From a virus: DNA of 64,000 nucleotides. The stretch lies in the IMG/VR virus record IMGVR_UViG_3300035695_000003, positions 4,406 to 68,405 of that record; one strand, given 5' to 3'. Shown here piece by piece: positions 9,825 through 58,448 of this stretch (position 1 is its first letter; each line of letters begins with the position of its first letter). The translations under genes and the position numbers were made by a program. The notes beneath the pieces were generated by a model, which was not told the origin of the DNA, ran no database searches, and saw nothing but the letters and a program-made list of their open reading frames with translations.

Positions 9825-10324
9825 TCGCCCGTCGTCGGATCTTTCTCAGCGCGGACGGGCTTGAACGGCGAGCCCCATTCGGTCGGGCCTATCCGCAGTC
9901 CGTGATCCGTGATCAGGACGCCGTCGAGATGATCGATCTCGTGCTGCGCGACCCGCGCCCGCATGCCGTTGAAGATGAATGGTTCGTCCGACTGCGAGTC
10001 CTTGACGACGATGCGCGTCGCGCGCCGAACGACGACGCTGACGCCCGGCAACGACAAGCAGCCTTCGAGTTGCGACCACGTCGACGTGCTGCGCTCGACA
10101 ATCACGGGGTTGACGAGCTTGATCCCCTGGACGTTGCAGACGCGCGCGTCGACGCCGATCTGCGGCGCGCTCAATCCCAGACCTAGGGCCGCGAAGCGCG
10201 TCCGTTCGAGTTCGTTGCTGATGTACCGCTCGGCGATCTCTTCGTCGAGCAGCACCCGCGCCTTCTTGCGAAGGTCCGGCGCGCCCTCGATCAGGACGAG
10301 CCTGAGCCCGTCGTCGTGCTTCAT
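9692..10324 (-). CDS. def: peptide deformylase with a C-terminal Cys-rich extension
   Basis: MKHDDGLRLV.., motif 1 GLSAPQIG, motif 2 EGCLSLPG, motif 3 HEIDHLDG; then ..GECTVACPHCGRR.. tail. Confidence 0.8.
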   Translation of the reverse strand: MKHDDGLRLVLIEGAPDLRKKARVLLDEEIAERYISNELERTRFAALGLGLSAPQIGVDARVCNVQGIKLVNPVIVERSTSTWSQLEGCLSLPGVSVVVRRATRIVVKDSQSDEPFIFNGMRARVAQHEIDHLDGVLITDHGLRIGPTEWGSPFKPVRAEKDPTTGECTVACPHCGRRYPWYIARWDEVQAMCFSDTRPTLIRIKGWRPW

Positions 10325-10611
10325 CGGCCCAGAGGCGGCGCCAGTCGGGTGCCGGGCGGCACGGCGAGGATCTTCGACTCGGGCGCGTCGTCGAGCGCGG
10401 TCTGGAAGAGCGCCACGATCCGGACGAGCTCGGCGCGACTGATCGGGTTCTGCGGCGTCTGAAGCACGAACAGCGTCACCGGAGGCGCGTTCGGATCTTG
10501 CACGACCGGCTTCGTCTCTGCCACGACGGCCAGCATGCCGCCCTGCGGGTTCTGCGGCGTCGGCTCGGAGAGCTCGACCCACCGCTTCTCGGAAAAGCTC
10601 TTCGTGGTCAT
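10321..10611 (-). CDS. hypothetical protein
   Basis: MTTKSFSEKRWVELSEPTPQN..; ATGA overlap with def. Confidence 0.5.
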   Translation of the reverse strand: MTTKSFSEKRWVELSEPTPQNPQGGMLAVVAETKPVVQDPNAPPVTLFVLQTPQNPISRAELVRIVALFQTALDDAPESKILAVPPGTRLAPPLGR

Positions 10612-11135
10612 GACTTCTCCTTCTTCGCGTAGAAGAGCGCGGCCGTCCCGGGCGACTTGGCCCGGTCGTCCACGAGGTTCCCGTGAGCGGTGGCGTCGGC
10701 GAGGATCGCCGCGCACGCGAGGATCGCGCCCAGGTTCGTGTTGCCTCTCTTGGAGTCGCGGTCGACGTCGTCGCCCGCCTCGTACGCCGCCACGTGGCGC
10801 TTGATCGCGGCGACGTAGACGCTGATCTTCACCGGCACGTCGCGGAAGTTGTACGCGCCGTACTTGTCCGCGCCTTCTTCCATCGTGTCGGCCGTCAACG
10901 CCGTAGCTGCCGGCGGCACGAGATGCAGCGCCAACTTCTTCGCGGCGGCCGCGGTCTTCGGATTGACTGCCGGCCGCTCAGGCGCGTTCTTGCCGTAACT
11001 GGCCCCGCATTTCGGACAGACCCAGAAGCCCTTGATCTTGTCGAGGATCGCCTCCTCGCATCCGAACTTGGTGCAGACGCTGGTCGGCGATAGGCCCTGG
11101 TCCTGATCCGTCGCGTAATTGGCGCGGGTCGTCAC
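10608..11135 (-). CDS. Zn-ribbon protein with a possible all-alpha NTP-pyrophosphohydrolase (MazG-like) domain
   Basis: GTG start in GTGA overlap. CTKFGCEE..CPKCG zinc ribbon; ..MEEGADKYGAYNFRD..NTNLGAILACAAILAD.. loosely resembles MazG/HisE-type EExxE helices. Confidence 0.4.
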   Translation of the reverse strand: MTTRANYATDQDQGLSPTSVCTKFGCEEAILDKIKGFWVCPKCGASYGKNAPERPAVNPKTAAAAKKLALHLVPPAATALTADTMEEGADKYGAYNFRDVPVKISVYVAAIKRHVAAYEAGDDVDRDSKRGNTNLGAILACAAILADATAHGNLVDDRAKSPGTAALFYAKKEKS

Positions 11136-11659
11136 GGCAACACCAGGGCCTTCACGACGTCGAGCCCCGACTGCAGGTCGCCCACGATGTAGCCCGCGAG
11201 CTGGTTCACCATCGCGTGGTGGTGCGGGTTCGTCTTGCCGAGCGCCACGACGTCCGTGGCGGCGTTCTTGACCGGCAGCGCCTGATACTCGACGCCGCCC
11301 TCCATGATCACGACGAGCGGCACGCGGAACGCGTCCGCCCATCCGATCTCGATCATGGACCCCACGGAGATGCGCTCGGCGCCGAGCAGGTTCATCAGCA
11401 CGACGTCGGCGCGACGCACGTCTTCCCGATCTCTGGTGCAGATGCCTTTCGGCGCGCTCAGGGGATGCACGCGCTGGTAGGCCTCGGGCGATCCGTCGAT
11501 CTTCTCCTCGCCTTTCAGGTACTGCTTCGCCCGCAGCGGGCTGAACCCGTCGATGTGCATCAGGTGCAGCGCGTACTTCGCCGCCTCGCGCCAGTCCGTC
11601 GCGCCGCCGTAGCTCAGGCCCGTGATCGGACCGGCAAGATAGACCCGGGGTCTGCTCAT
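11132..11659 (-). CDS. nucleoside 2-deoxyribosyltransferase-like protein
   Basis: N-terminal VYLAGPITG, ..ADVVLMNLLGAE..IEIGWADAFRVPLVVI.. typical of the Nuc_deoxyrib_tr/DNPH1-like fold. Confidence 0.55.
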   Translation of the reverse strand: MSRPRVYLAGPITGLSYGGATDWREAAKYALHLMHIDGFSPLRAKQYLKGEEKIDGSPEAYQRVHPLSAPKGICTRDREDVRRADVVLMNLLGAERISVGSMIEIGWADAFRVPLVVIMEGGVEYQALPVKNAATDVVALGKTNPHHHAMVNQLAGYIVGDLQSGLDVVKALVLP

Positions 11660-17162: not shown

Positions 17163-17590
17163 GGTGTAGCCGACGGTCTGAAGAGAACGACCGGCTTGGC
17201 CTTTCCGTGCCATGCGCCTGCCAATGCCAGCAATTCGCGCTCGGGATCTGATCCCAAGATCGCCTGAAGCGCGATCCGATCGCCGATCGGAAGCGGTCTC
17301 CGGAGCTTCAACCAGACGTGACGATGCATCGCGCCGCTCTTCGACGGCAAGATGACTGGCTCGTCGAACGTGAGCACGTCGACGATGCCGCCGTGTTCCG
17401 CGGCGAGCGACTTCAAGAGCCTGAGTCCGTCAGAGAACCGGGACATGGCCGTGTCCGAGTCGACGTCCAGCTGGAGCGTCGTGTCGTCGGCGACGTCCGG
17501 GACCAGTCCCAGCTCGGCAGCGCGCCGCTCCATCCAGCCGTCGGTCAACGCGCCGAGTTCAGACTTCTTGAGGTACTTGAGATACGTCAT
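17159..17590 (-). CDS. hypothetical protein
   Basis: MTYLKYLKKSELGALTDGWMERRAAELG.. Confidence 0.5.
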   Translation of the reverse strand: MTYLKYLKKSELGALTDGWMERRAAELGLVPDVADDTTLQLDVDSDTAMSRFSDGLRLLKSLAAEHGGIVDVLTFDEPVILPSKSGAMHRHVWLKLRRPLPIGDRIALQAILGSDPERELLALAGAWHGKAKPVVLFRPSATP

Positions 17591-18033
17591 CGTTCCCCCG
17601 GATCCAGAAGGCCGAGCTGCCAGAAGAGCGACGGGTGGTGCGACGTGCCGAGCACCGCGTGGAGCAGCTCGTGGCGCACGGTCTTCGGGTCGTCGACGTG
17701 AAGGTCGGCCAAGAACACGGCATCGATCCCGTCGCCCACGTAGGCGCCGTAGCAGCGCGCCGCCCGGGCGCACGCGAAGGTGTTGCCCCTGAGCGCGTAG
17801 AACTGCAGGTCGTCGAAGCGCGCGGCCGGCCTGCACCCGCACTCCTGCACGAGCTCCGCCCACCAGATCCGGTATTGCGCGGGCGGGACGAAGGCGCGCG
17901 ACGCGTCGTGCGTCTCTACGACCCATCGTGCCAGCGCCTCGGGCGCCAGCGGGGCCTCGCGCGCGGGTCCCACGCAGGCGCCGATCAACAGCACGAACGC
18001 AAACGCAAGCTCAACCGTAGATGCGCACTTCAT
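17587..18033 (-). CDS. secreted lipoprotein with an HExxH zinc-metallopeptidase motif
   Basis: MKCASTVELAFAFVLLIGACVGP (lipobox); ..DPKTVRHELLHAVLG.. HExxH. Confidence 0.5.
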   Translation of the reverse strand: MKCASTVELAFAFVLLIGACVGPAREAPLAPEALARWVVETHDASRAFVPPAQYRIWWAELVQECGCRPAARFDDLQFYALRGNTFACARAARCYGAYVGDGIDAVFLADLHVDDPKTVRHELLHAVLGTSHHPSLFWQLGLLDPGER

Positions 18034-18490
18034 CGCATGCCTCCTTGTTGTGGCATTCGCCGCCATCGCAGTGGCACGTGTCTTCGTACGCTCCCCACAG
18101 ATGCCCGCACGTCTCGCACCGTCGTGACAGGCCAAACGGCCAGACGCGCCACGTCGGACCGCCGCGCCACTTGCCGACGAACGCGTGGCACTCGCGGCCC
18201 GCCCGCGTGACGAGCGTCTGCTCGTCGTAGCCCGACTCCAGCAGCCGGACGAACATGATCACCCGCTCGTTCTCGATCTCGAAGACCTCGCCCGCCATCT
18301 CGGTGCCTGGCCTCGGCACCGCGCAGGCGACGGTCCTCGGCAGCTCGGGCACCAGTGGACCGAACGCCGGTGCCAGGCTCCAGCCGTCCACGACGTCTTC
18401 CGCGACGAAGCTGACGCCGGCCTTCCCGGCCAGCATCCGGCCGTGCCAGGCCTGCCCGCGCTTCAGCGTGCCGTAGAAAAAGAACCTCAT
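18011..18490 (-). CDS. gamma-glutamyl cyclotransferase-like (AIG2/GGCT fold) with a C-terminal Cys/His cluster
   Basis: MRFFFYGTLKRG.. (YGTL motif); catalytic-Glu region EVFEIENE; C-terminal CETCGH..CHCDGGECHNKEAC. Confidence 0.75.
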   Translation of the reverse strand: MRFFFYGTLKRGQAWHGRMLAGKAGVSFVAEDVVDGWSLAPAFGPLVPELPRTVACAVPRPGTEMAGEVFEIENERVIMFVRLLESGYDEQTLVTRAGRECHAFVGKWRGGPTWRVWPFGLSRRCETCGHLWGAYEDTCHCDGGECHNKEACDEVRIYG

Positions 18491-19437
18491 CTGGTTCTCC
18501 GTCTCTGTCTGGTGGTCTGCCGTCGGCTCGGGTTCGGCCGACGGTCCTGGTCCACGTCTCTGAAGGCGGCGACGACGTCTTCGGCCGGGAAGTCGCGCCC
18601 GAGGCCCGTCGCCAGGTCTTTCGTCTGCACCGTCCACCTTCCGTCCGCGTACAGCGCGCCCGTCACGCGGTACTCTCGCGCCTCGAACTCGAACACCTGC
18701 TCCAAGGCGGCGGCCAACCCCGGATGACGCCCCGCGCAGGCCTCGAAGCTCCGCTCTTGGCCCGCGGGCGGCGCCTGCGCCTCTGCCCGTCCGCTCGACG
18801 AAACGAACACGCCCGCGATCACCGTCGCGTCTGCCGCGACGAGCCCCCGCCGCGCGAGCCGCGCGACGATGGCCCTGCGCCCCGTCGTCGCGACGGCGCG
18901 CTCCTCGATCAAGACCACGGCCCTGCTGCCGCCCGCGGCCGTGACCGCGTATCTGTTCTGCGGCGTGTCCAGCACCTCGACGCGCTGGCCGTCGTCCGCG
19001 AAGACCACGAGCGTCTGGTCCATCGCGCGGTACTCCATGGTCGCCGGCACGACGGCCACCACGTCGCGCCGCACCGACTCGCGCCGGGCACCGCAGCATT
19101 GGGCGCAGTCGCACCGGTCTCCGTCTGGACCCGGCTGACCATCGTACGCCGCGACCGCGCGCTCGATCGCCTGCATCAGCGACCTCGTGCTCGGCAATCG
19201 TTCTGGACTTCTCGTCTGGCCGGTCTCGGCGTCCACGTACCGCGCCGATGCCCACGACACCGGCGTTGCCGGCGTCGTCTGCGGCAAGACGTGGGCATGA
19301 CCCAGGATCTGCCCGTCGATGCTCTCTACGATCGCGCCTGCCGCGGCGCGCTCGATGGCACGAAGGTCTTCAAGACTGAAGCTGACGGACGTCCCGTCGC
19401 TGGTTCCGCCCGGGAAGAGGGGGCGACGATCAGGCAT
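18487..19437 (-). CDS. hypothetical protein
   Basis: 316 aa; globular composition through most of its length; CDCAQCCG motif. Confidence 0.5.
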   Translation of the reverse strand: MPDRRPLFPGGTSDGTSVSFSLEDLRAIERAAAGAIVESIDGQILGHAHVLPQTTPATPVSWASARYVDAETGQTRSPERLPSTRSLMQAIERAVAAYDGQPGPDGDRCDCAQCCGARRESVRRDVVAVVPATMEYRAMDQTLVVFADDGQRVEVLDTPQNRYAVTAAGGSRAVVLIEERAVATTGRRAIVARLARRGLVAADATVIAGVFVSSSGRAEAQAPPAGQERSFEACAGRHPGLAAALEQVFEFEAREYRVTGALYADGRWTVQTKDLATGLGRDFPAEDVVAAFRDVDQDRRPNPSRRQTTRQRRRTR

Positions 19438-20044
19438 CTGCCGGCGCTCCGACGACCGGCGTCGTCCGGCGCCAGCGACCGACGTCGCGCCCGTGATATT
19501 CCCGCGCCGTCACGTCGTGGAAGCCGCGCCCCGCGTCGTGCAGCACGCGGTGCACCACCGCCTCGGGATCGCGCAGCGTCTCCAGGTTGGGCCATTGCGG
19601 CACGAGCCAGTCGACGAAGGCGCGCACGTTCATCCGCCGCTCCACCCCGTCCACGGGGGCCTTCATGATCTGGTGGTCGCGGCCGCCTTCTTCGAGCGGC
19701 CCGCGGCCCAGGTGGCGCTCCAGGACGAGCGCCACGAACGTCGGGTCGCGCCTGAGGCCGCCCGCGGCCTTCCGCCGGGCCGAGAGCGCCCGCCGTTCAT
19801 GCGCGCGCGCCACGGCCTCGCTCGCCTTGTCCCAGCTGACCTGCGCCAGCGCGGCCGTGGCCATCTCGCGCCCGCGGTGGCCGCAGCGCCGGCACGCCAC
19901 GCCGTGGACGTTGCTGCCGCCCGCCTTCGCGTAGGCGACGGGCGCGGGCTCGCCGCACTTCGGGCATGGCCAGAGCCCCGGCCTGTCGTGCGTCAGGACC
20001 GGCGGCGCGACAGCTTCCGGTTCGCGTAGCGTCGTGCCGACCAC
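19430..20044 (-). CDS. Zn-ribbon protein
   Basis: GTG 20044 estimated; ..LWPCPKCGEP..VACRRCGH.. Confidence 0.4.
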   Translation of the reverse strand: MVGTTLREPEAVAPPVLTHDRPGLWPCPKCGEPAPVAYAKAGGSNVHGVACRRCGHRGREMATAALAQVSWDKASEAVARAHERRALSARRKAAGGLRRDPTFVALVLERHLGRGPLEEGGRDHQIMKAPVDGVERRMNVRAFVDWLVPQWPNLETLRDPEAVVHRVLHDAGRGFHDVTAREYHGRDVGRWRRTTPVVGAPADA

Positions 20045-20214
20045 TTCCGGTTCCAGCCCCGCGGGAATCGCCCTTCGCCCCAATGCGTTCCCGTCCGGCT
20101 GTCCACGTGCTGGCCATGGCTCCCCGACATCCGGCAATCGAAGTCCGGGGCCTTCGTGTTGTACTGATGCGCCGTGCATCGCGTCTCCTTGGGCTTTCGC
20201 TGTTCGTCGGTCAT
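19993..20214 (-). CDS. small basic protein
   Basis: GGGAGA SD 8 nt before ATG 20214; MTDEQRKPKETRCTAHQYNTKAPDFDCRMSGSHGQHVD..; its 3' end overlaps the next gene by 52 nt in another frame. Confidence 0.35.
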   Translation of the reverse strand: MTDEQRKPKETRCTAHQYNTKAPDFDCRMSGSHGQHVDSRTGTHWGEGRFPRGWNRKWSARRYANRKLSRRRS

Positions 20215-20229
20215 CGCAGGATCTCCCGT

Positions 20230-20574
20230 TCATGCCGTCCGGCGCGGGCCGCGCGGCCTGTTGAGCCGCGCGCCCGCCATGTGCTCCTCGTCGTACCAGC
20301 GCTCTGCCGCTTCCAGGTCCGCGTCCGTGATCCGTCCGTCGGCACCCGTCGCGCACAGCAGGCCGCGCGACACGCGCGGCGGTGCAGGCGGCGGACGTCG
20401 CCGGACCGCGCCGCGCAAGAGCGCGAGCGGCAGCCGGACGCAGAGCGTCGTGACGATCTCCGCCGCCGCGAGCAGGAGCGCGACCAGCCACGACGTGGCG
20501 AGCGCGGCGAGCCAGAGCCCGCCGAGCCCGCCCGCGCCGCCGCGCCTGCGCGACCCGCGCATCATCCCTCTCAT
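20230..20574 (-). CDS. possible membrane protein
   Basis: ..LGGLWLAALATSWLVALLLAAAEIV.. TM; the rest is R/P-rich, so uncertain. Confidence 0.3.
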   Translation of the reverse strand: MRGMMRGSRRRGGAGGLGGLWLAALATSWLVALLLAAAEIVTTLCVRLPLALLRGAVRRRPPPAPPRVSRGLLCATGADGRITDADLEAAERWYDEEHMAGARLNRPRGPRRTA

Positions 20575-20942
20575 CTCGCGTGCCGTCCTAGCGCGTTCCG
20601 CACGGACTCGGGCGTCAGCCGGAAGCGTCTGCCCGAGCTCGTTTCGGTCGCCTCGATGGGCATGCGGCGCGCCCGCGCGTTCCAGCCGGTGATGACGAAC
20701 GTGCGCCGTTGGATCGTCACCGTGCGGCCGAGGTCTTCAGCGGTCAGGCCAAAATGCCGGCCGAACACGCCGAAGCTGTGCTTGGCCATCGCGTCCGCCG
20801 TCCATTGCGCGCTGTTCGCCTCTTCCAGCGCCGCGATCAGCTCGCGCAGCAGCAGCGCCGGCAGCAGGTCCGCGTCCGCGGTCCCGACGGGCCAGGTGCG
20901 CGCCACCTCGTCCTTGATCTCTTGCAGTCGTCGCCTGTCCAT
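20571..20942 (-). CDS. hypothetical protein
   Basis: MDRRRLQEIKDEVARTWPVGTADADLLPALLLRELIAALEEANSAQW.. Confidence 0.5.
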   Translation of the reverse strand: MDRRRLQEIKDEVARTWPVGTADADLLPALLLRELIAALEEANSAQWTADAMAKHSFGVFGRHFGLTAEDLGRTVTIQRRTFVITGWNARARRMPIEATETSSGRRFRLTPESVRNALGRHAR

Positions 20943-21000
20943 GTGCCTCGCTTTCTCGTGTGCCGTAAGATAACATCTTTCACGCCGCAACGCCAGTGCG

Positions 21001-21174
21001 TCAGATCGGCTCCCAGCCGTCGCCGATCTGGCGCGCGTCGAGCACGTCCTCGTTGCCGTGCTTGTCGACGACCACGAACAGCGGGCCCTCGGGCTCGTCG
21101 TCGTGGCGCTCGAGGATGAAGCGCCAGCCGTCTTCGTCGGAGCGCTGCATGCCGGCCGTCGGCAGGTTAGCCAT
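21001..21174 (-). CDS. small acidic protein (not in ORF track)
   Basis: MANLPTAGMQRSDEDGWRFILERHDDEPEGPLFVVVDKHGNEDVLDARQIGDGWEPI. Confidence 0.35.
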   Translation of the reverse strand: MANLPTAGMQRSDEDGWRFILERHDDEPEGPLFVVVDKHGNEDVLDARQIGDGWEPI

Positions 21175-21553
21175 AGACCACCTCGCCGAACAGGCCCGCC
21201 TGCACCACCGCGTCCGCGTCGTCTGCGTCGTAGGTCTCGTCCATCACGTTCGCCCACGTGATCCGCGACAAGGGAAACTTGTCGTGGCTCGGCGCCTTCT
21301 TCGCGTCGTCCCAGCCGCCGACCGTCACCAGGTCGTCGTGCAGCCGTTGCAGTCCCAGCTTGATCGTGCCGAGGTCGATCCGGTGCTCCGGCTCGCCGTC
21401 GCGCTCGACTTCCACGACCACGGCGTAGGCGTCCAGTGCCGGCGCGCCGTCCCGCGTCGCCCAATGGTACGCCTTGCAGCGCGACCAGTAGCCGATCCCG
21501 CCTTCCAGCGCGGTCGTGAACAGGTCGTGCAGCAGCAGTTCGTCCTCGGTCAT
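21167..21553 (-). CDS. hypothetical protein
   Basis: MTEDELLLHDLFTTALEGGIGYWSRCKAYHW.. Confidence 0.5.
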   Translation of the reverse strand: MTEDELLLHDLFTTALEGGIGYWSRCKAYHWATRDGAPALDAYAVVVEVERDGEPEHRIDLGTIKLGLQRLHDDLVTVGGWDDAKKAPSHDKFPLSRITWANVMDETYDADDADAVVQAGLFGEVVYG

Positions 21554-21762
21554 GGGTCTCTCCCGCGCGAGTACACGGTCGTCGTGGTGCTGCCGTCTTG
21601 GTAGTCGAATGCCAGGTCGCGGTCCGCGCCACAACGGCAGCTCTGCTGCACTAGCTCGCCGTTGTCGAACGTCGTCTTCCACCGGTGCGCATGGACGCGA
21701 GGCCTCGCGCGCCGCGTCAGGCCCGCGCCGCGGCGCACCGTGGTTCTCCGGCCGTCAGCCAT
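21550..21762 (-). CDS. small Cys-containing protein
   Basis: ..ELVQQSCRCGADRDLAFDYQDGSTTTTVYSRGR.. Confidence 0.45.
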   Translation of the reverse strand: MADGRRTTVRRGAGLTRRARPRVHAHRWKTTFDNGELVQQSCRCGADRDLAFDYQDGSTTTTVYSRGRDP

Positions 21763-22045
21763 CGGCGTCTCGCGCCATGTCGCCGAGCTCTTCCTTCAGG
21801 CTCTTCATGAACTCGGTCTTGGTCATCGGCCGCGACACCCCGCGCGCCACCATGTGGCCGGGCATCTGCACGTCCCAGCTCTCGTAGGGCGTGTCGGCCA
21901 TCGCCTCGGCGATGTCGTTCGCCTCGGCGTCCGTGCACCGCACCACCGTCACGCCGATCTCGTCCAGCTTGCTCCAGCCCGAGAGCGTCGACAGCACGAC
22001 GTAGATCCGCTTCGTGCTTGCCTTCTTCGTCTTCTTTCTGGTCAT
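21755..22045 (-). CDS. hypothetical protein
   Basis: MTRKKTKKASTKRIYVVLSTLSGWSKLDEIGVTVV.. Confidence 0.5.
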   Translation of the reverse strand: MTRKKTKKASTKRIYVVLSTLSGWSKLDEIGVTVVRCTDAEANDIAEAMADTPYESWDVQMPGHMVARGVSRPMTKTEFMKSLKEELGDMARDADG

Positions 22046-22317
22046 ACCCGCCTCCCCTCGTCGAAGACGGACACCGGAAACCTGCGGCCGAGCGCGCCGT
22101 CTGCCGCGCCGCCCGCGTGGCGGGCCAAGAATCGCAGCCACGCCGCCGGGTCCAGCCACCACGTCGCCTGCTCCATCCGACCCGCGCCGCAGGCCCGCGC
22201 CGTGATCTTCCGCAGCCGGCGCTCCGTCTCCGCCACGACCCGCGTCCCCCGCGCGCCGCCCTGCTCCAGCGCGACGACCTGCACGGTCTCTTCGACCACG
22301 TCGCCTGTCCTGATCAT
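22042..22317 (-). CDS. hypothetical protein
   Basis: MIRTGDVVEETVQVVALEQGGARGTRVVAETERRLRKI.. Confidence 0.45.
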   Translation of the reverse strand: MIRTGDVVEETVQVVALEQGGARGTRVVAETERRLRKITARACGAGRMEQATWWLDPAAWLRFLARHAGGAADGALGRRFPVSVFDEGRRV

Positions 22318-22421
22318 CTGTGCCTCAGCAGCACGACGGCCAGGATCGTCAGCCACAACGCCACCGTGACGACGATCAGCAGCAGGTCTTTCCAGCTCTC
22401 GCCCTTCTTCCAGCCGCTCAT
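22314..22421 (-). CDS. tiny single-TM peptide
   Basis: MSGWKKGESWKDLLLIVVTVALWLTILAVVLLRHR. Confidence 0.3.
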   Translation of the reverse strand: MSGWKKGESWKDLLLIVVTVALWLTILAVVLLRHR

Positions 22422-22744
22422 CGCGTGCCCCGGTCGCCCGTCGCGCGCGCGACGTCGCAGTCTGCCGCGCAGCCCTGGTGGCGCATCCGCCCGCACCCCG
22501 AACAGCTGGCGCCGGAGTTCGACATCGGCTGCACCCATTGCGTCTGCCGGAGCAGCTCCGTCAGGTACTCGATCCGCCGCTCGTCGTGGTGATCCAGCGT
22601 CCAGCGCACGTGCGCCGTCGCCCCGATCACGTCGCGCGACTCGACGGAGCCGGCCACCTGCTCGGGCTGGCCGTGCTCGCCCGCGTGGTAGCGCTCGAGC
22701 AGCAACACCAGCAACTTCAGCTCGTCCTTGTCCAGCTTCTTCAT
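22418..22744 (-). CDS. hypothetical protein
   Basis: MKKLDKDELKLLVLLLERYHAGEHGQPEQVAG..; C-terminal CSGCGRMRHQGCAADC. Confidence 0.55.
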   Translation of the reverse strand: MKKLDKDELKLLVLLLERYHAGEHGQPEQVAGSVESRDVIGATAHVRWTLDHHDERRIEYLTELLRQTQWVQPMSNSGASCSGCGRMRHQGCAADCDVARATGDRGTR

Positions 22745-22771
22745 GCGTCGGTCCTTTCGTCGGGCTTCTCT

Positions 22772-22829
22772 GGCCTCGTCAGCGCGGGCCTGACCCGCGG
22801 ACCGGCCCGTGCGGGCGCCGGTTTCGGCC
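22772..22829 (-). ncRNA. type II hammerhead ribozyme (copy A)
   Basis: Minus-strand RNA: GGCC-GAAA-[helix III CCGGCGCCCGCACGGGCCGG]-U-C / cleavage / [helix I CGCGGG-UCAGG-CCCGCG]-CUGACGA-GGCC. Every invariant hammerhead core nucleotide is present (C3U4G5A6N7G8A9, G12A13A14, A15.1:U16.1, GUC cleavage triplet, G10.1:C11.1). The 5' G overlaps the UAG stop of the upstream gene. Confidence 0.8.
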
Positions 22830-23380
22830 TACCAGCGCGAGTCCCAGTCCTCCTCTTCGTAGGCCCGCACGTTCTCGACCAGCGTCGCCCGCTTCACGAG
22901 CCCGTGCCGAACCGCCGTCGCGACGCCCAGCTCGAAGTACGTCCGCGGCGCCTTCAGGACCCGCCGCAGCCGCTGCACCGTCGTGATCTCGTCCGTCACG
23001 TCTTCGCCGCCCGCGGCGTCGAAGCCCTCGATGAAGTGCTCCACGTCGTCGACGTCGACGCGGAGGATCCGCGCTGCCGCGCTCGTCTCGTTCGCCACGT
23101 CGTCGACCGAGTTCTTCATGAGGATCACCGCGGCCATCGCGCAGGCCTCGTCGTCGCGGTCGCACACCCACGCGCGCTCCGTCCCCGGCTCCACCGGCAC
23201 GTCGCGCGTCGCGAGCTGGTTCTGCTCGAGCGTCTCGAGCGCCTGCCGCTCGATGCCCCACGTGCCGGTCACCAGCGTCACGCGCCCGATCTTCTTCATG
23301 CGCCGGATCGACTGGTCCACGACCTCGCGCGTGGACGCCAGCGTGCCGTGCCGCCATCCCGATCTCTTCGGCTTCGCCAT
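22829..23380 (-). CDS. hypothetical protein; gene flanked by the two hammerheads
   Basis: 183 aa, MAKPKRSGWRHGTLASTREVVDQSIRRMKKIGRVTLVTGTWGIERQALE..; SD GAAAGGGGAG before ATG 23380. Confidence 0.6.
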   Translation of the reverse strand: MAKPKRSGWRHGTLASTREVVDQSIRRMKKIGRVTLVTGTWGIERQALETLEQNQLATRDVPVEPGTERAWVCDRDDEACAMAAVILMKNSVDDVANETSAAARILRVDVDDVEHFIEGFDAAGGEDVTDEITTVQRLRRVLKAPRTYFELGVATAVRHGLVKRATLVENVRAYEEEDWDSRW

Positions 23381-23402
23381 CGTGCTCCCCTTTCTTGGTT
23401 CT

Positions 23403-23468
23403 GGCCTCGTCAGCGCCGGCGTCTACCGGCGGACCTGCACGGGCCCGAAGGCCCGGCAGGTTTCGGCC
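23403..23468 (-). ncRNA. type II hammerhead ribozyme (copy B)
   Basis: Minus-strand RNA: GGCC-GAAA-[helix III CCUGCCGGGCC-UUCG-GGCCCGuGCAGG]-U-C / cleavage / [helix I CGCCGG-UAGACG-CCGGCG]-CUGACGA-GGCC. Same invariant core as copy A, with a UUCG-capped helix III. Confidence 0.8.
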
Positions 23469-23470
23469 TG

Positions 23471-23989
23471 CTACTCGACCAGCGCGATCCCGCCTTCGGG
23501 CGCGGGCTCCTCCTCGCCGAGCGTCTCCTCGGCCTCGGGCGTCGCCGCCGGCACGGGCTGCGCGGGCTGCGGCGCGGTCACCTGCCCGCCCTCCGCGCCC
23601 GTCAGGTACACGTGGCCCGTCAGCTGCACGATCTCCACGTCCCGGTCGGCGACCGTCTGGTTCTCCTGGAGCTCGCCCTGACACAGGTGGCTCACCTGCG
23701 GGTCCGCCAGGACGGCGTCGATCACGAGCGCCCGCGCCGCCTGCGCGCTGGCCGCCGCGACCACGAAGTTCCGCTGCTGCCGGCCCGTGGACTCGCCCGT
23801 GGCCGTGTCCATCACGTCGGCGTAGACGGTCGCCTTGAACAGCCGCCGCGCCACCGGGATCAGCCCGCCGGCACCCTTGATCGCGTGGATGGCGTCGGCC
23901 ACGGCGTACGAGCCGCCTTCGTCCGAGGCCTGGAACTGCTCCAGCAGGAGCCGGAGCGCCATCTTGCCCTTCTTGTGCATCGTCGACAT
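23471..23989 (-). CDS. hypothetical protein
   Basis: MSTMHKKGKMALRLLLEQFQASDEGGSYAVADAIHAIKGAGGLIPVARRLF.. Confidence 0.6.
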   Translation of the reverse strand: MSTMHKKGKMALRLLLEQFQASDEGGSYAVADAIHAIKGAGGLIPVARRLFKATVYADVMDTATGESTGRQQRNFVVAAASAQAARALVIDAVLADPQVSHLCQGELQENQTVADRDVEIVQLTGHVYLTGAEGGQVTAPQPAQPVPAATPEAEETLGEEEPAPEGGIALVE

Positions 23990-23993
23990 TCGT

Positions 23994-24227
23994 CTACTCC
24001 TCTTTCCGCAGGAAACCGGCCGCCACGAGCGAGGCCAAGAACCTCGCCGCCGTTGCCGGGTCGATCAGCGGGGCGCCCGGCCGCTGCTCGTGGCAGCGCC
24101 GGCTCACCTCGCGCATGTAGGGCCCCTTCTGGTCCATCTCCATCCACGCGGCGCGCGTCATCTTGCGCACCACGACCCGCGCCGTCGGGCCGGCGAACGT
24201 CTTGCCGCCGCCGTCCGCGTACCGCAT
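23994..24227 (-). CDS. hypothetical small protein translationally coupled to the GATase gene
   Basis: TGATG stop/start junction at 24225-24229; MRYADGGGKTFAGPTARVVVRKMTRAAWMEMDQKGPYMREVSRRCHEQ.. Confidence 0.4.
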   Translation of the reverse strand: MRYADGGGKTFAGPTARVVVRKMTRAAWMEMDQKGPYMREVSRRCHEQRPGAPLIDPATAARFLASLVAAGFLRKEE

Positions 24228-25246
24228 CAGTCCCCCTTTCCCGTCAGTGCCCGCCGCGCCTCGTCGCGCGCGGCCTCGTGGACCCACTTCCCGTCGCGCC
24301 ACTCGTCGCCGCGGCGCCAGCTGGTGGCCGCCACCGCGCACGAGGAACAGAGCCGGACCCCGTTGATCGTGGCCATCTCGAACGGCTTCCACAGGTCGAG
24401 GCACGACCCGCACTTCTCGTACTCCTGGCCGTTCTGGCCCCAGATCTTCGTCGTGCCGAGCTGGGCGCGCCGTTTCTTGCCGCCCTTCTTCTGCGTCTTC
24501 CCGGCCCACCACCAGCTGGCCCGCGGGCTCTCGCCCGGCCGGTAGCGCACGAGCACGCCTTCGTCCAGCTCGCTGGTGCCGTTGCACGTGAGCCGGCTCA
24601 GCTCGACGGCGGCCGTCAAGATGTCCTTCGTGCTCGCGAAGGCCACCGCGTTCAGCTCGGCGACCCGCGTCCGCCACAGGGGATTCCCGCGCCGCGTCAG
24701 CCACAGCTCGGGCTCTCCGTCCGTGCCCTGTCGGCCCAGCGCCAGCGCCAGCGAGCCCTCGGCGCGCCGGAGCATCTTGCCCCAGCCGGCCGCGGGCTCG
24801 ACCGCGAGCGCCGCGATGAGGTTCGCCGAGTCGACGGCGTAGGTCGTGCCGCCCCGCGCGACGAACCGCGCGTGGTTGTTGATCACGCCGTTGTGCACGC
24901 CGACCGTCTCCGTGCCGTCCTCGTCCGCGAAGGCGAACGGGTGCGCGTTGGCGTCGGTCACCGCGCCGTGCGTGGCGAACCGCGTGTGCCCCACCAGCGC
25001 GAGCGTCGCGCCGTTCGGGACCACGAGGGCCTTCCATGCCGGATCGGCGATCAGCTCCCACGCGGGCACCGCCCGCTTGAGCACGTGCGCTGGCTCGCCC
25101 GCGTCCAGCCTGTACAGGCCGGCCGAGTCCGTCCCCCGCGCCGTCGAGAGCGCCGCCAGGCTCGCCGCGAGGCGCGCCCAGCCTGCCTTCTCGGCCTCGG
25201 TCAGCGCCGGGCCCTTCGTTCTGATGATGCCGTAGATGCCGCACAT
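24227..25246 (-). CDS. class-II (Ntn-type) glutamine amidotransferase-like protein with a C-terminal Zn-finger
   Basis: Starts MCGIYGIIRT (Cys-2 nucleophile, hallmark of GATase-II/Ntn hydrolases); ..HTRFATHG..NAHPF.. core; C-terminal CGSCLDLWKPFEMATINGVRLCSSC. Confidence 0.8.
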   Translation of the reverse strand: MCGIYGIIRTKGPALTEAEKAGWARLAASLAALSTARGTDSAGLYRLDAGEPAHVLKRAVPAWELIADPAWKALVVPNGATLALVGHTRFATHGAVTDANAHPFAFADEDGTETVGVHNGVINNHARFVARGGTTYAVDSANLIAALAVEPAAGWGKMLRRAEGSLALALGRQGTDGEPELWLTRRGNPLWRTRVAELNAVAFASTKDILTAAVELSRLTCNGTSELDEGVLVRYRPGESPRASWWWAGKTQKKGGKKRRAQLGTTKIWGQNGQEYEKCGSCLDLWKPFEMATINGVRLCSSCAVAATSWRRGDEWRDGKWVHEAARDEARRALTGKGD

Positions 25247-25721
25247 CGTCTGCCGTTCTCCTTTCAGCGGAACGCGTAATGATAACACAAACTGCTGCCG
25301 ACGACCATCCCGAGTCGGCGTCGATGCTACTATCTCTGCTGTCAGATAATCTGACAGTCGATCCGATGTTACCAATCGTCGTGTTCGGAAACGGCCTGAA
25401 CACGTGTCGCACAAGTGTTTAGCGTGTTCGCGAGTGTTCGGAACACCGTCGCTGGCCGCGTAACTTCTTATGCCGCTTTTGTTCAGGTGCTCTCGGGCAA
25501 AATCGTCATTGCTAACATCACCTCCGTTCTGGGTCCACGGAACGCCGTAACTTCTTATGCCGCTTTTGTTCCGCGTGTTCCGCGAACAGCCGGAACATTG
25601 GCATTGGCGTCGTGTTCCGCCTGTTCAGACCCTTAGGTCTGAACGGCGAACACCCATGCCCGTGTCAGAACACCTTCGATCATGGCGCCGCGAGGAGTCG
25701 AACCCCGTCGGCGCGGTCTGC
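25247..25721. promoter_or_regulatory. palindrome- and repeat-dense regulatory island (operator cluster and/or origin)
   Basis: 19-bp perfect palindrome CTGTCAGATAATCTGACAG (25339-25357). At least 5 GTGTTC...GAACAC inverted repeats (25381-25403, 25426-25446, 25576-25592, 25609-25655 nested). 26-bp direct repeat CGTAACTTCTTATGCCGCTTTTGTTC at 25459-25484 and 25546-25571. Confidence 0.5.
25681..25706 (-). other. tRNA 3'-end-like fragment (24/26 identical to the 3' end of the tRNA-Tyr gene at 8338-8363); candidate att core or tRNA remnant
   Basis: catggcgccgcGaggaGtcgaacc versus catggcgccgcCaggaTtcgaacc. The remainder does not fold into a tRNA. Confidence 0.4.
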
Positions 25722-25916
25722 CTACTTCAGGTACAGCACCCAGCCCCGCCGGGTGACCGCCATGCCGTGGTCGATGCCCTGGTCCGTCATGAAGGCAGCG
25801 ACCTCGCCCGCCGTGCTGCCGTTGGTGAACAGCGCCTTGCCCTGCTCGATCACGAAGCCTGCCAGCCTGGCGATCGTCGCCTGGCCGAGCACGCCTCCTC
25901 TCGCGATGCGCGTCAT
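25722..25916 (-). CDS. small protein encoded directly downstream of the amidoligase gene
   Basis: SD GAAAGGACG 8 nt before ATG 25916; MTRIARGGVLGQATIARLAGFVIEQGKALFTNGSTAGEVAAFMTDQGIDHGMAVTRRGWVLYLK. Confidence 0.5.
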   Translation of the reverse strand: MTRIARGGVLGQATIARLAGFVIEQGKALFTNGSTAGEVAAFMTDQGIDHGMAVTRRGWVLYLK

Positions 25917-25935
25917 CTGATCAGCTCGTCCTTTC

Positions 25936-27090
25936 TCAGGCGGCCCGCCGGAAGGCGGTCCGGTAATAGTCGGGGTTCCGGTCGAACGTCCACCGCGCCA
26001 GCGTCCGCTGGACGGCGTCGCCCATCACGATCCGCGCGAGCGACCAGCGCCGCGCTTCCGTCCACGGGGGCAGCACGCGGCGCGCCGCCTGCCGCTCCGT
26101 GCCGTCCCACGTCCGCGTCCGCTGCACGTGCAGCTCCAGCGCCCTGTCGAGCTGGTCGTCCGTGCAGCGCTGCGCGAAGTCGACCACCCGCTGCGTCGCG
26201 AGCAGCCACCAGCCTGCCTTGTTCGCGTCGAGCGTGCCCTGATGCGCCCGCATCTCGACGCGGCCGTGCCGCCACCAGTTGGTGAGGTTCAGCGCCTGGT
26301 AGCGCCCGAGCCTGCGCACGTGCGCCGGCAGATCCGTCAGCGCCGCCGAGTCTTCTGCGAACTCGCGACCCCAACGCTCGGCAAACGTGTTGCGCCGCCT
26401 GTCCGTGGGCAGCGCCTCGTGCAACGGCGTGTCGAGCGCGCCCCAGAGCCTGATCAGTCGCTGGACGAAGCCCGTCGTCCGCGCGACCCGCGCCTCGTGA
26501 TGCACGTGGAAGCCGCAGCGCCTGTCGACCCGCGCGCCCGCCGCGACCAGCGCGTTCAGCACGGCCACGACCATCGGCCAGCTCGCCGCCGTGATGGCCG
26601 GCGTCACCATCTCCCACTCGCAGCTGCCGTCGGCCTTGACGTCCCACGTTCGCCCGGTCGAATGGCGATACTCGTGATCGTCGCTGACCTGCTGTTCCGG
26701 CCACGGCGCGAGCGCTTCCCGCACCACGTCGGCCCACTCCGAGCCCGAGCGATATCGCGCGCCCGGCCCGCTCGGGTTGACGAACTCGAACTCCAGCCCG
26801 AAGCGCCGCCGCTGGTCCAGCATCGCTGGATCGAACAGCTCGCCCGGCCCGTCGGGATCGCCCGACCAGCCGATCGGATCCGGCACCGCGTCTGGCAGCG
26901 TCAGCGGGCTCGCCGGCAATTGCCGGCTTCCCCGTTGCCGCGGCCCGCGCGCCGCCTCGCTCCGGTAATACGACAGCGTGTGTCGGGGATCGGCGCAGGT
27001 CGGATGCCTGTCTCTCAGCATCCGCAGCACCGCGTCGTCCGACGCGCCGTTCGCGATGTACTCGCGAACGTCATGCGCTATCGAAGGCAC
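25936..27090 (-). CDS. amidoligase-family (GCS2/glutamine-synthetase-like COOH-NH2 ligase) protein with an N-terminal ~45-aa repeat domain
   Basis: GTG start after AAAGGGGG. N-terminal VREYIANGASDDAVLRMLRDRHPTCADPRHTLSYYRSEAARG (the repeat domain), a linker, then ..RFGLEFEFVNPSG.. (amidoligase G-x-E-x-E-F start) and ..CGFHVHHE... Confidence 0.65.
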   Translation of the reverse strand: MPSIAHDVREYIANGASDDAVLRMLRDRHPTCADPRHTLSYYRSEAARGPRQRGSRQLPASPLTLPDAVPDPIGWSGDPDGPGELFDPAMLDQRRRFGLEFEFVNPSGPGARYRSGSEWADVVREALAPWPEQQVSDDHEYRHSTGRTWDVKADGSCEWEMVTPAITAASWPMVVAVLNALVAAGARVDRRCGFHVHHEARVARTTGFVQRLIRLWGALDTPLHEALPTDRRRNTFAERWGREFAEDSAALTDLPAHVRRLGRYQALNLTNWWRHGRVEMRAHQGTLDANKAGWWLLATQRVVDFAQRCTDDQLDRALELHVQRTRTWDGTERQAARRVLPPWTEARRWSLARIVMGDAVQRTLARWTFDRNPDYYRTAFRRAA

Positions 27091-28080: not shown

Positions 28081-28404
28081 TCACGCCGCCGCGGCGCGCC
28101 GCGCTTCGCGCTGGTAGAACCGCAGCGTCCGGCGCGGGTTGACGCAGGTCGGATACTTCTCCATCACCATCTGCAGAATCGCCCGCTCGTCCGTCCCCGC
28201 CGCCAGCGCCGCCCTGACGTCTGCCGCGATTCCGCCGCGGGGCTTGACGTCAAGCGAAAACGCCGTCCGCGCTTCGCTCTTGTAGTACGCCAGGGTCCGC
28301 GCCGCATTCGCCGTCGCGGGAAAATCGCTGTGAATCATCGCCAGGATCTGCTCGTCGGACTGGCCAGCGGCCAGGGCACTGCGCACGGCCTGCGCGGTAG
28401 TCAT
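28081..28404 (-). CDS. protein made of two tandem copies of the ~45-aa repeat domain that also heads the amidoligase
   Basis: Repeat 1 VRSALAAGQSDEQILAMIHSDFPATANAARTLAYYKSEAR; repeat 2 VRAALAAGTDERAILQMVMEKYPTCVNPRRTLRFYQREAR; SD AAAGGGA before ATG 28404. Confidence 0.6.
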   Translation of the reverse strand: MTTAQAVRSALAAGQSDEQILAMIHSDFPATANAARTLAYYKSEARTAFSLDVKPRGGIAADVRAALAAGTDERAILQMVMEKYPTCVNPRRTLRFYQREARRAAAA

Positions 28405-58411: not shown

Positions 58412-58448
58412 ACAAAAAGGCCCCTCGATCGAGGGGCCTTTTGCTTTA
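58412..58448. terminator. bidirectional rho-independent terminator between the convergent late (+) and early (-) units
   Basis: AAGGCCCCTCGA/TCGAGGGGCCTT 12-bp perfect inverted repeat, followed by TTTTGCTTT on the plus strand and TTTTTGTT on the minus strand. Confidence 0.6.

Follow-up and report, generated by a model that had tools for sequence, protein, structure and literature searches.

Gene sets that combine an Amidoligase_2 enzyme, a class-II glutamine amidotransferase (GATase) and a gamma-glutamyl cyclotransferase (GGCT) have been described in the early or replication arm of LUZ24-like phages, RIO-1, phiEco32 and related podoviruses (Iyer et al. 2009; Hardies et al. 2013). The phage literature takes the linkage found in LUZ24, RIO-1 and phiEco32 to be a cassette that forms gamma-glutamyl amide linkages or modifies peptidoglycan (PMC4819975, PMC5498523, PMC11945000, PMC3890496), and the literature searched contained no biochemical evidence for any of its members. 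Smaller versions occur in phages of Gram-positive hosts: gp96-gp98 of Arthrobacter phage Kovu are annotated by SEA-PHAGES as a contiguous GGCT, amidoligase and GATase, and in Ottawa an HMM search adds a GGCT-like ORF just upstream of the ligase-GATase pair annotated by SEA-PHAGES (gp65-66).

Here we analyse the corresponding genes of an uncultured phage, contained in a stretch of 64,000 nucleotides (the window). Formation and cleavage of glutamate-type amide bonds is the predicted role of the enzyme set, of which the window carries a divergent and scattered copy. We give about even credence to the reading that this copy is a reduced form of the phage 'gamma-glutamyl amide / unusual peptide bond' cassette, with dispersed genes, and that it is expressed from the early leftward arm. 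The relevant features are as follows.

18011-18490, minus strand: GGACT/AIG2-type gamma-glutamyl cyclotransferase (GGCT), 159 aa
23994-24227, minus strand: 77-aa small partner, member of an unannotated family
24227-25246, minus strand: stand-alone class-II (Ntn) glutamine amidotransferase (GATase), 339 aa, glutaminase domain at aa 1 to about 240
24338-24412, minus strand: zinc-ribbon-like CxxC...CxxC tail of the GATase, aa 279-303
25247-25721: 475-nt non-coding spacer between amidoligase plus 64-aa ORF and GATase plus 77-aa ORF
25722-25916, minus strand: 64-aa ORF, a real, lineage-specific gene
25936-27090, minus strand: amidoligase, 384 aa, GTG start, ATP-dependent carboxylate-amine ligase of the Amidoligase_2 family
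25948-26058, minus strand: C-terminal three-helix piece of the amidoligase, aa 345-381
26950-27087, minus strand: N-terminal three-helix module of the amidoligase, aa 2-47

Comparison with the described cassettes

The window resembles the LUZ24-type podoviruses in the early-arm location of the genes, and the GATases of these phages are the nearest GenBank relatives of the window GATase. In contrast to them, the window phage has a siphovirus-like genome with a P22-type coat, and its three enzyme genes, rather than forming a single cluster, are spread over 9 kb. The LUZ24 cassette is also larger (gp16-gp22), and its COOH-NH2 ligase (PF14395) and RimK-type ATP-grasp are both absent from the window. 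LUZ24 gp18 shows no similarity to the window amidoligase detectable by phmmer, and gp20, a 73-aa protein in the same position after the GATase, is not matched by the HMM of the small partner. Kovu and Ottawa carry, like the window, a minimal triad devoid of extra ligases, and their amidoligases are the closest GenBank phage relatives of the window enzyme (26-29% identity), but the window genes are scattered where those of Kovu are contiguous. The 77-aa family was not detected by HMM in the Kovu and Ottawa loci.

The three enzymes

All three enzymes lie on the minus strand, where the initial annotation had placed them, and its family assignments hold: each protein scores above the Pfam cut-off, and PHROGs concur for the amidoligase and the GATase. 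The amidoligase, for which the JGI gene call P0001 gives an identical 384-aa protein, matches Amidoligase_2 (PF12224) with E 9.2e-18 and 65 bits (cut-off 22). Its fold is of the glutamine-synthetase (GS)/Glu-Cys-ligase/PafA type, and the acidic, His and Arg positions that are invariant in these enzymes are retained. Sequence identity to the GS, Glu-Cys ligase, YbdK and PafA-Dop fold is only 8-14%, and no sequence-level PDB match was found. To our knowledge, every characterised member of the GS fold (GS, GshA, PuuA, PafA) activates a glutamate gamma-carboxylate. Compared with GS, the window enzyme is much smaller, lacks the beta-grasp N-domain and bears helical modules at both ends: the N-terminal one (ending SYYRSEAAR) is followed by a disordered linker (aa 51-82), and the related C-terminal piece ends in DYYR.

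With Cys-1 and the residues for glutamine binding in place, the GATase is a stand-alone glutaminase of the Ntn type. It matches GATase_6 (PF13522) with E 4.5e-10 and 40 bits (cut-off 27) and the GlmS N-terminal domain of NCBIfam with E 4e-15. Its start at Cys-1 is correct, since the profile matches, including those of four PHROGs, begin at residue 1 (MCGI) and an AAGGAG lies 8 nt upstream. The motifs RGTDSAG37, HTRFATHG87 and HNGVINN118 align with their equivalents in the E. coli GlmS glutaminase domain, and VDSAN138 falls at the position of the GlmS 'SETDTEV', in a low-confidence part of that alignment. Beyond the glutaminase domain lie a basic stretch, KKGGKKRR (aa 253-260), and the zinc-ribbon-like tail, which is shared with the GATases of loci L016 (49% identity) and L098 and with Kovu gp98.

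The GGCT matches GGACT (PF06094) with E 2e-6 and 28.8 bits (cut-off 22.8). Both the YGTL and the catalytic-Glu motif of GGACT are preserved: YGTLKRG (aa 6) and GEVFEI (aa 67) are matched by YGTLKRGQ and GEIYEV in alignments to the mammalian structures 2KL2 and 1VKB, the top two among the several GGACT entries matched. Its C-terminal tail is Cys-rich (CETC125, CHC139, CDGGEC141). A distance of 5.5 kb, with about 12 unrelated ORFs and two ribozyme-like elements, separates the gene from the GATase pair upstream of it, and none of the GGCTs of other loci is closely related to it; because it is so distant and so divergent, its tie to the other genes is given by family-level statistics only.

Linkage across related loci

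Those statistics come from a census of IMG/VR, in which at least 70 of the 80 loci encoding a related amidoligase contain a partner gene: GGCT in 54, GATase in 15 and both in 4. As flanks extended to 8 kb at most and many contigs are short, these counts are lower bounds and the mutual exclusivity of GATase and GGCT may be overstated. Co-occurrence at the family level is far beyond chance. The linkage of amidoligase, GATase and GGCT is real and was already known from the phage literature; its conservation across related loci, the point on which the initial annotation could have failed, upholds that annotation's core reading of a predicted, biochemically uncharacterised amide-bond system. The architectures are amidoligase > small protein > GGCT (27 loci), amidoligase > GGCT (19), amidoligase > GATase (9), amidoligase > GATase > GGCT > small protein (2) and amidoligase > GATase > small protein (1). 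The three genes of this last order are contiguous in L098, where the small gene also encodes 77 aa, GATase and small protein overlap by 4 nt in L016, and in L075 and L091 a single operon comprises all four components. Arrays in which amidoligase and GATase genes alternate occur in L001, L003 and L004, and the median gap between the two is 124 nt.

The initial annotation had proposed a small protein as part of the system. This idea is borne out by the 77-aa protein, which it overlooked, and not by the 64-aa ORF that it singled out. In the window the ATG of the 77-aa gene shares one base with the GATase stop (TGATG). Across phages, this protein is the most constant neighbour of the ligase: the family comprises about 1,093 unannotated clusters and lies beside amidoligases in 38 of the 80 loci, usually with a GGCT and no GATase. 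It is predicted to be folded rather than disordered (pLDDT 88), in the order beta-beta-alpha-alpha-alpha-beta, and structural similarity to PurS or GatC was not found.

Proposed mechanism and alternative explanations

We propose that the amidoligase, probably bound to the 77-aa protein, would spend ATP to activate a glutamate-type carboxylate as acyl-phosphate and join it to ammonia or an amine. The GATase would hydrolyse glutamine and pass the ammonia to the ligase, the two forming a glutamine-dependent amidotransferase, with the 77-aa protein as a possible third, structural subunit comparable to PurS or GatC. The alternating arrays, the median gap and the GlmS/PurF-like profiles argue for such a subunit-like role of the GATase. 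From a free gamma-glutamyl-amine the GGACT-type enzyme may liberate the amine, with 5-oxoproline as the other product, and so feed or reverse this chemistry. PurL/PurQ/PurS, GatCAB and MurT/GatD serve as a functional comparison only: they too combine a separate glutaminase, an ATP-dependent synthetase and a third gene of approximately 80 aa in one operon, but the window glutaminase is of the Ntn class II rather than the triad or amidase type, and its synthetase is GS-like. A cell-envelope peptide is the target guessed at in the literature; the helix-bundle or zinc-ribbon appendages present on all three enzymes of this lineage make a nucleic-acid or protein target conceivable.

Possibly, though with a good deal less confidence on our part, the ligase instead couples the gamma-carboxyl of free glutamate to an amine on a small molecule, a protein lysine or a nucleic-acid amino group, and GATase and GGCT are alternative erasers, the former acting by hydrolysis and the latter by cyclisation to 5-oxoproline. 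The glutamyl group would then serve as a transient protecting group, as in butirosin (BtrJ/BtrG) or ergothioneine (EgtA/EgtC) synthesis. Both enzyme classes bind the free gamma-glutamyl head group, gamma-glutamyl-methylamide and arylamine gamma-glutamylating synthetases are among the structural neighbours of the ligase, and GATase and GGCT, found together in only 4 loci, are mostly alternative partners of the amidoligase, a pattern that removal of the ligase-attached group by both fits equally well. Pfam describes the GATase as a 'thiol peptidase', and a weak match of the GATase to EgtC (NCBIfam, E 2e-3) also favours this reading. Against it, the closest GATase profiles are the GlmS and PurF glutaminase domains, which fit much better than EgtC, the arrays resemble subunit pairs, the cycle alone would be futile (ATP and Glu to 5-oxoproline), and the neighbourhoods contain no conserved enzyme to alter a protected intermediate.

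Modification of peptidoglycan or another envelope precursor, the published hypothesis, seems to us improbable for this locus. It holds that the stem peptide is amidated or extended, for example at the D-iGlu or mDAP carboxylates, blocking superinfection or altering lysis. It recurs in PMC5498523, PMC11945000 and PMC11318856, all citing Iyer 2009 and Hardies 2013, and finds a precedent in MurT/GatD, a ligase and glutaminase pair acting on lipid II (PMC3267633). The host of the window phage is probably Gram-negative, and a lipoprotein gene adjoins the GGCT: the ORF starting at 18033 has a lipobox-like LLIGAC and the HELLH of the HExxH lipoprotein proposed initially, but Pfam, PHROG and NCBIfam lend it no support and none of 97 related loci has a homologue, which speaks against a role in the system. 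For GGCT to act, the gamma-glutamyl residue must have its alpha-amino group free, and in stem-peptide D-iGlu it is not. Moreover, the three enzymes have HTH-like and zinc-ribbon appendages in place of signal peptides or envelope-binding domains, and the phages with this cassette infect Actinobacteria, Bacteroidota and Proteobacteria, which have different stem peptides.

Hypermodification of DNA or RNA, in which the ligase and GATase would amidate or glutamylate a modified base with the help of nucleotide-pool enzymes encoded elsewhere in the genome, is about as improbable. Amidoligase and amidotransferase domains co-cluster with thymidine-hypermodification genes on viral contigs (Lee et al. 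2021, PMC8989533), and the HTH-like three-helix modules of the ligase, the basic stretch and zinc ribbon of the GATase and the Cys-rich tail of the GGCT would suit such a target. Neighbours in other phages include PNKP, NUDIX, PTH2 and HD_4. The window phage itself encodes a MazZ-like dGTP/dATP diphosphohydrolase domain in the gene first called MazG-like (10608-11135; dGTP_diPhyd_N, E 1.8e-20) as well as nucleoside deoxyribosyltransferase-like proteins; of the two initially reported, that at 11132-11659 is significant (E 1.9e-9), but that at 63658-63855 falls under the Pfam cut-off. Of two reported methyltransferases one was found (62643-63410) and the second was not. However, Pfam scans of the early arm and the right end revealed no hydroxymethylase, 5-hmdU kinase, aGPT-Pplase or DpdA, and the suggested link to DNA modification is not supported.

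Finally, the intervening ORFs and ribozyme-like elements and the lack of close relatives among amidoligase-linked GGCTs could mean that only amidoligase, GATase and 77-aa protein form a unit while the GGCT works independently, for instance in the breakdown of glutathione or of other gamma-glutamyl compounds of the host, but this is very unlikely given that GGCT is the commonest neighbour of the amidoligase family, that the four components form single operons in two loci and that the triad is contiguous in Kovu, with the same order in Ottawa by HMM.

The 64-aa ORF and the spacer

The 64-aa ORF and the repeat-rich 475-nt gap interrupt an operon, amidoligase > GATase > small protein, that is contiguous in a relative. 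The ORF begins 19 nt past the amidoligase stop and is a real gene, as indicated by its coding-type composition (GC3 0.94, GC2 0.49) and its conservation in L005, its sole close relative (69% identical; 9 synonymous and 13 non-synonymous codon differences in 42 codons). As the partner it is not supported: it is present only in the window and L005, is absent from L098 (the 39%-identical relative with the contiguous genes), has no match in Pfam, PHROG or NCBIfam or to the small-partner HMM, and shows no detectable relation to the conserved small family (hhalign probability 1%). A Pup-like tag is not supported for the 64-aa and 77-aa ORFs alike: neither has a conserved C-terminus, be it the GGQ/GGE ending of the Pup-PafA-Dop system or any other, and a proteasome or Mpa context is absent. 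The spacer has no counterpart in L098. It contains exact 26-nt direct repeats (n=2, 0 expected) at 25459-25484 and 25546-25571, and four TGTTCCGCGTGTTC-like sites, of which the window holds 5 against 0.8 expected. A tRNA-like minihelix mimicking an acceptor stem and T-arm (RF01684, 28.5 bits, E 0.12) spans 25684-25740 on the minus strand.

The amidoligase, GATase and GGCT of the early arm

The window carries a glutamine-synthetase-fold, ATP-dependent ligase, a GGACT-type cyclotransferase and a conserved 77-aa companion, all located in the early arm, together with a glutamine amidotransferase (GATase) that its residues predict to be a catalytically intact, stand-alone Ntn glutaminase. As a set they make up a new, divergent and dispersed representative of a phage enzyme cassette that is known but has not been characterised. 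The genes concerned are:

25936-27090, minus strand, amidoligase
25722-25916, minus strand, 64-aa ORF
24227-25246, minus strand, GATase
23994-24227, minus strand, 77-aa ORF
18011-18490, minus strand, gamma-glutamyl cyclotransferase (GGCT)
17587-18033, minus strand, lipoprotein-like ORF encoding HELLH and a lipobox-like signal (MKCASTVELAFAFVLLIGAC); it shares ~23 nt with the 3' end of the GGCT gene

The three family assignments of the initial annotation were borne out, with each enzyme scoring above its curated Pfam cut-off and PHROGs concurring with Pfam for the amidoligase and the GATase. The amidoligase, to which a JGI gene product is identical, matches Amidoligase_2 (PF12224) over profile positions 2-239 of 245 (65.4 bits against a gathering score of 22, E 9.2e-18) and has the glutamine-synthetase-like catalytic fold of that family, including the conserved Glu, His and Arg residues that bind metal and phosphate. 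The GATase gene lies 0.7 kb and the GGCT gene 7.4 kb downstream of it.

The GATase matches GATase_6 (E 4.5e-10) and begins MCGIYG, the catalytic Cys being the first residue after the initiator Met. This start is preceded by a Shine-Dalgarno sequence 8 nt upstream and is taken as correct because the profile matches align from residue 1. Its RGTDSAG37, HTRFATHG87 and HNGVINN118 match the equivalent motifs of the E. coli GlmS glutaminase domain (1XFF), in which we take R26, R73, N98-G99 and D123 to be the glutamine-binding and oxyanion residues. The arginine and Asn-Gly motifs, which hold glutamine, thus have their counterparts in the alignment, and VDSAN138 falls at the position of D123 in a poorly supported stretch of it. 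The closest profiles are the glutaminase domains of GlmS and PurF. No second Pfam domain was found that could correspond to the fused acceptor (synthase) domain of GlmS, PurF, AsnB or GltB, which makes the protein a stand-alone glutaminase or amidohydrolase; the glutaminase domain is followed only by a basic stretch (KKGGKKRR) and a zinc-ribbon-like CxxC...CxxC tail, and this C-terminal tail is kept in the related loci L016 and L098 and in Arthrobacter phage Kovu.

The GGCT is very divergent from other amidoligase-linked GGCTs and carries a Cys-rich tail. It matches GGACT (PF06094; E 2e-6, 28.8 bits against a gathering score of 22.8), and its YGTLKRG6 and GEVFEI67 correspond to YGTLKRGQ and GEIYEV in the mammalian GGACT structures 2KL2 and 1VKB, the GE(V/I)(F/Y)E-type motif holding the catalytic Glu of GGACT. 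Its gene is 5.5 kb downstream of the GATase pair, and for the ~12 ORFs in between the only functional clues are weak matches to Lar-like proteins and to phrog_2355. The initial annotation had placed a putative HExxH metallopeptidase lipoprotein beside the GGCT. The sequence features are indeed present, but the ORF had no family match in Pfam, PHROGs or NCBIfam and no homologue in related loci; a secreted metallopeptidase is possible but unsupported.

In the lineage of the window all three enzymes bear appendages. The amidoligase has at each end a three-helix module of ~45 aa, which occurs about five times in this phage with the consensus ...VRxALAxGxSDExILxMxxxxFPxxxxxxxTLxYYRSEAR:

28081-28404, minus strand, first early gene (phrog_17767), with a tandem pair of modules
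26950-27087 and 25948-26058, minus strand, one module at each end of the amidoligase
864-1280, minus strand, gene with the module at its C-terminus

The module is also found in three further amidoligases (P0002, P0170 and P0171) and in one gene of the closest relative, L005. Its fold is HTH-like.

A conserved 77-aa protein is the small partner

The initial annotation proposed the 64-aa ORF beside the amidoligase as a substrate, tag or partner. By its composition and its substitution pattern against L005 this ORF is a genuine gene, but it is confined to the window and L005, with nothing similar elsewhere in 97 related loci. A first alignment made it a plausible conserved partner, but HMM and hhalign tests led to its rejection. 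The role passes instead to the 77-aa ORF. In several distant loci an ORF of 74-80 aa directly follows the amidoligase, and an HMM built from three of these, when run on all 902 six-frame ORFs of the window, matched this ORF alone (E 3.4e-8; 1e-22 with a larger profile) and left the 64-aa ORF unmatched. JGI also calls it as a gene (P0011), and its ATG shares one base with the GATase stop codon (TGATG). As members of the amidoligase-associated family we counted proteins of ~75-80 aa that have a significant profile match and whose genes immediately adjoin that of an amidoligase, GATase or GGCT; the 77-aa ORF shows all of these features, and L016, L098 and L074 have a like arrangement. In L098, the amidoligase of which is 39% identical to that of the window and has the same N-terminal module, amidoligase, GATase and 77-aa genes are contiguous and the 475-nt non-coding spacer that precedes the window GATase gene is not present; in L016 a GATase of 49% identity is followed, with a 4-nt overlap, by a small protein of 57% identity. 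We conclude from these two arrangements that the 64-aa ORF and the spacer were inserted into an operon of amidoligase, GATase and 77-aa gene.

At E<=1e-3, an exhaustive profile search assigned 1,093 clusters to the 77-aa family, which had no match in Pfam, PHROG, NCBIfam or PDB. Its only detectable members in GenBank phages come from Porphyromonas phages, where they are recorded as 'hypothetical protein', and from two faecal contigs, where they have no annotation. Neither small ORF has the conserved C-terminal Gly-Gly-Gln/Glu of a Pup- or ubiquitin-like tag or another conserved attachment residue: the 64-aa ORF ends in ...WVLYLK, and the C-termini of the 77-aa family vary (KEE, RIP, RVS, ETVWN), with no invariant Glu, Lys or Cys. 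The 77-aa family is the most constant companion of the amidoligase, and any reconstitution should probably include it.

Linkage of the enzymes across phages

The conserved linkage of the three enzyme families, previously put forward as known from comparative genomics, is supported by the literature, by annotated phages and by our scan of IMG/VR. A 'peptidoglycan modification cassette' comprising a gamma-glutamyl amidoligase, a second amidoligase, an ATP-grasp enzyme, a GGCT and a glutamine amidotransferase has been described (PMC5498523, PMC11945000, PMC3890496); we found no report of its biochemical function in the literature. In LUZ24 the cassette lies at gp16-gp22. Kovu has annotated, contiguous GGCT (gp96), amidoligase (gp97) and GATase (gp98) genes, and Ottawa has a ligase-GATase pair. 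Whereas the seven-gene cassette of the LUZ24/RIO-1 type is contiguous and includes both extra ligases, the genes of the window are spread over 9 kb and neither ligase accompanies them: the early arm gave no Pfam match to a COOH-NH2 ligase (PF14395) or a RimK-type ATP-grasp enzyme, and a phmmer comparison of LUZ24 gp14-gp23 with the six-frame ORFs of the window matched the GATase only. No other ORF of the window qualified as a hidden member of either ligase family or as a conserved neighbour (Pfam, PHROGs, phmmer). Lacking these two ligases, the window corresponds to the minimal Kovu-type triad plus a small protein.

Scanning IMG/VR with an amidoligase alignment gave 80 loci, in which the partners (GATase, GGCT and the small protein) were detected with iterated HMMs that we built locally; with flanks of at most 8 kb and many short contigs, the counts are lower bounds. 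GGCT was found at 54 loci, the small protein at 38 and GATase at 15, nearly always on the same strand and directly downstream of the amidoligase. At least one partner was present in 70 of the 80 and a GATase or GGCT within the flank in 65, GATase and GGCT occurring together in only four, so that the two are mostly alternative partners of the amidoligase. The commonest orders were amidoligase, small protein, GGCT (27 loci), amidoligase, GGCT (19) and amidoligase, GATase (9); two contigs have all four genes in a single operon (amidoligase, GATase, GGCT, small protein).

Larger assemblies also occur. Three metagenomic phage contigs from Logan (L001, 2598-8390; L003, 1554-8956; and L004) contain alternating arrays of up to four Amidoligase_2 and up to three GATase_6 genes, closed by the 77-aa gene, one more GATase gene and a gene for an HD_4 hydrolase of the RelA/SpoT type; the arrays look like an expanded, assembly-line-like version of the system. 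In larger phages (L002 and L006-L010; e.g. L007, 6825-12104) a recurrent block of Amidoligase_2, 77-aa protein and GGACT is followed by a polynucleotide kinase-phosphatase, a second, shorter Amidoligase_2, a 75-78-aa ORF and a NUDIX protein, and further on by a PTH2-like protein, an RNA-repair-like neighbourhood.

The amidoligase/GATase/GGCT set is among the most widespread phage cassettes still without a known function; its carriers infect Proteobacteria, Actinobacteria and Bacteroidota, and Pseudomonas phages used in therapy are among them. The window holds no new kind of system; it displays a minimal four-gene version without the extra ligases. What is new is that the 77-aa ORF takes over as the small partner, how large and how tightly linked its unannotated family is, the partner statistics and the lineage-specific appendages. 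The alternative partnering of GATase and GGCT narrows the possible chemistries, and together with the minimal set and the 77-aa companion it makes a defined in-vitro test possible.

Possible function of the system

From the chemistry of the families, the ligase would activate a glutamate-type carboxylate as an acyl-phosphate and couple it to ammonia or an amine, and GATase and GGCT would both recognise a free gamma-glutamyl head group. We favour, at about even chances, a model in which the GATase would be the nitrogen-donating subunit of the ligase, the small protein a structural partner, and the GGCT would release or recycle gamma-glutamyl-amines. The model is preferred because the GATase is stand-alone, is matched one-to-one with ligases in the arrays and has its closest profiles in the GlmS and PurF domains. 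Its main rival, which we consider rather unlikely, is a write-and-erase cycle of gamma-glutamylation with GATase and GGCT as alternative erasers, supported by their near mutual exclusivity; the present data do not separate the two.

A further, quite improbable reading is that amidoligase, 77-aa protein, GATase and GGCT would act early in infection as a writer/eraser system, marking a macromolecule with a glutamyl- or amide-type group. Phage DNA or RNA and host proteins would be the candidate targets, to which the enzymes of this lineage would be tethered by their HTH-like modules and zinc ribbons. If true, such a system would define a class of covalent modification new to phages, in which the 77-aa family would supply the specificity or carrier subunit. 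The only hints of a nucleic-acid target are the domain appendages of this lineage and the co-clustering reported by Lee et al. for other viral sequences (PMC8989533). The following genes bear on nucleotide metabolism:

10608-11659, minus strand, region with a dATP/dGTP diphosphohydrolase N-terminal domain (dGTP_diPhyd_N, MazZ-like; PF18909, E 1.8e-20) and an adjoining nucleoside 2-deoxyribosyltransferase (E 1.9e-9)
63658-63855, minus strand, second, short nucleoside deoxyribosyltransferase-like ORF at the right end

MazZ-type diphosphohydrolases are known from 2-aminoadenine phages; no PurZ-like gene was seen in the window, 4.4 kb of the source contig lying outside it. The role in DNA modification that the initial annotation had entertained found no support when the early arm and the right end were scanned with Pfam (minus-strand genes at 864-28404 and 58446-63855, with spot checks of the structural arm and again with 4.4 kb outside the window), which revealed no DNA-hypermodification genes, namely dUMP/dCMP hydroxymethylase, 5-hmdU kinase, aGPT-Pplase or DpdA/QueC. 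Peptidoglycan, the candidate target put forward in the literature, may be the substrate, but the D-iGlu of its stem peptide has no free alpha-amine, which makes it chemically awkward for a GGCT, and the domain appendages lend this target no support.

Genome setting and RNA elements

The window (68% G+C) has a tailed-phage layout by gene calling with self-trained codon scores: a minus-strand early/replication arm from ~28404 down to 864, a plus-strand structural arm (29456-58398) and a second minus-strand block at the right end. Recognisable genes encode a P22-type coat protein, a family-A DNA polymerase, a primase-polymerase/AAA_25 protein, an SNF2 helicase and Pam3 gp32-34-like proteins, and the early arm also contains:

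9692-10324, minus strand, peptide deformylase (PF01327, E 3e-24) that is extended at its C-terminus by a zinc-ribbon-like segment
8339-8429, minus strand, tRNA-Tyr(GTA) with a long variable arm

No DNA-level similarity to GenBank phages was found in INPHARED, nor a close IMG/VR relative using a single protein; the sole close relative is L005, a contig of 2.2 kb. The nearest relatives of the coat protein (~33% identity) belong to Dinoroseobacter, Pseudanabaena and Vibrio siphoviruses, and a Gram-negative host is therefore likely, as judged from this protein.

Several candidate regulatory and RNA elements accompany the cassette:

25247-25721, non-coding spacer of 475 nt and lower GC, between the 64-aa ORF and the GATase gene
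25684-25740, minus strand, tRNA-like minihelix gcgccgaCGGGGTTCGACTCCTCGcggcgcCA, straight after the stop codon of the 64-aa ORF
23395-23468, minus strand, type-II hammerhead ribozyme match (RF02276; 30.1 bits, E 0.044)
22764-22829, minus strand, type-II hammerhead ribozyme match (RF02276; 30.9 bits, E 0.028)

The spacer looks like an operator/promoter array or iterons: a 26-nt direct repeat is present in two identical copies (25459-25484 and 25546-25571), and there are four TGTTCCGCGTGTTC-like sites, which occur in both orientations and have a fifth counterpart at 6088. The minihelix combines an acceptor stem with a T-arm (GGTTCGAnTCC loop) and weakly matches the tRNA-like mascRNA family (28.5 bits, E 0.12); ARAGORN called no tRNA there. 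It may serve as a signal for processing by RNase P/Z or represent the 3'-tRNA fragment of an attP-type site, and no integrase was present in the scanned arms of the window. Both hammerhead matches, with E values for the whole window, score below the gathering score of 37. On the coding strand, they occupy the intergenic gaps that flank a 183-aa gene (22829-23380), and the putative ribozymes would cut the early polycistronic transcript between the genes of the amidoligase system. Both keep the core CGAAAC, GUC and CUGA(C)GA, and two of their stems differ by compensatory changes (CCGGC/GCCGG vs CCTGC/GCAGG and CGCGGG/CCCGCG vs CGCCGG/CCGGCG).
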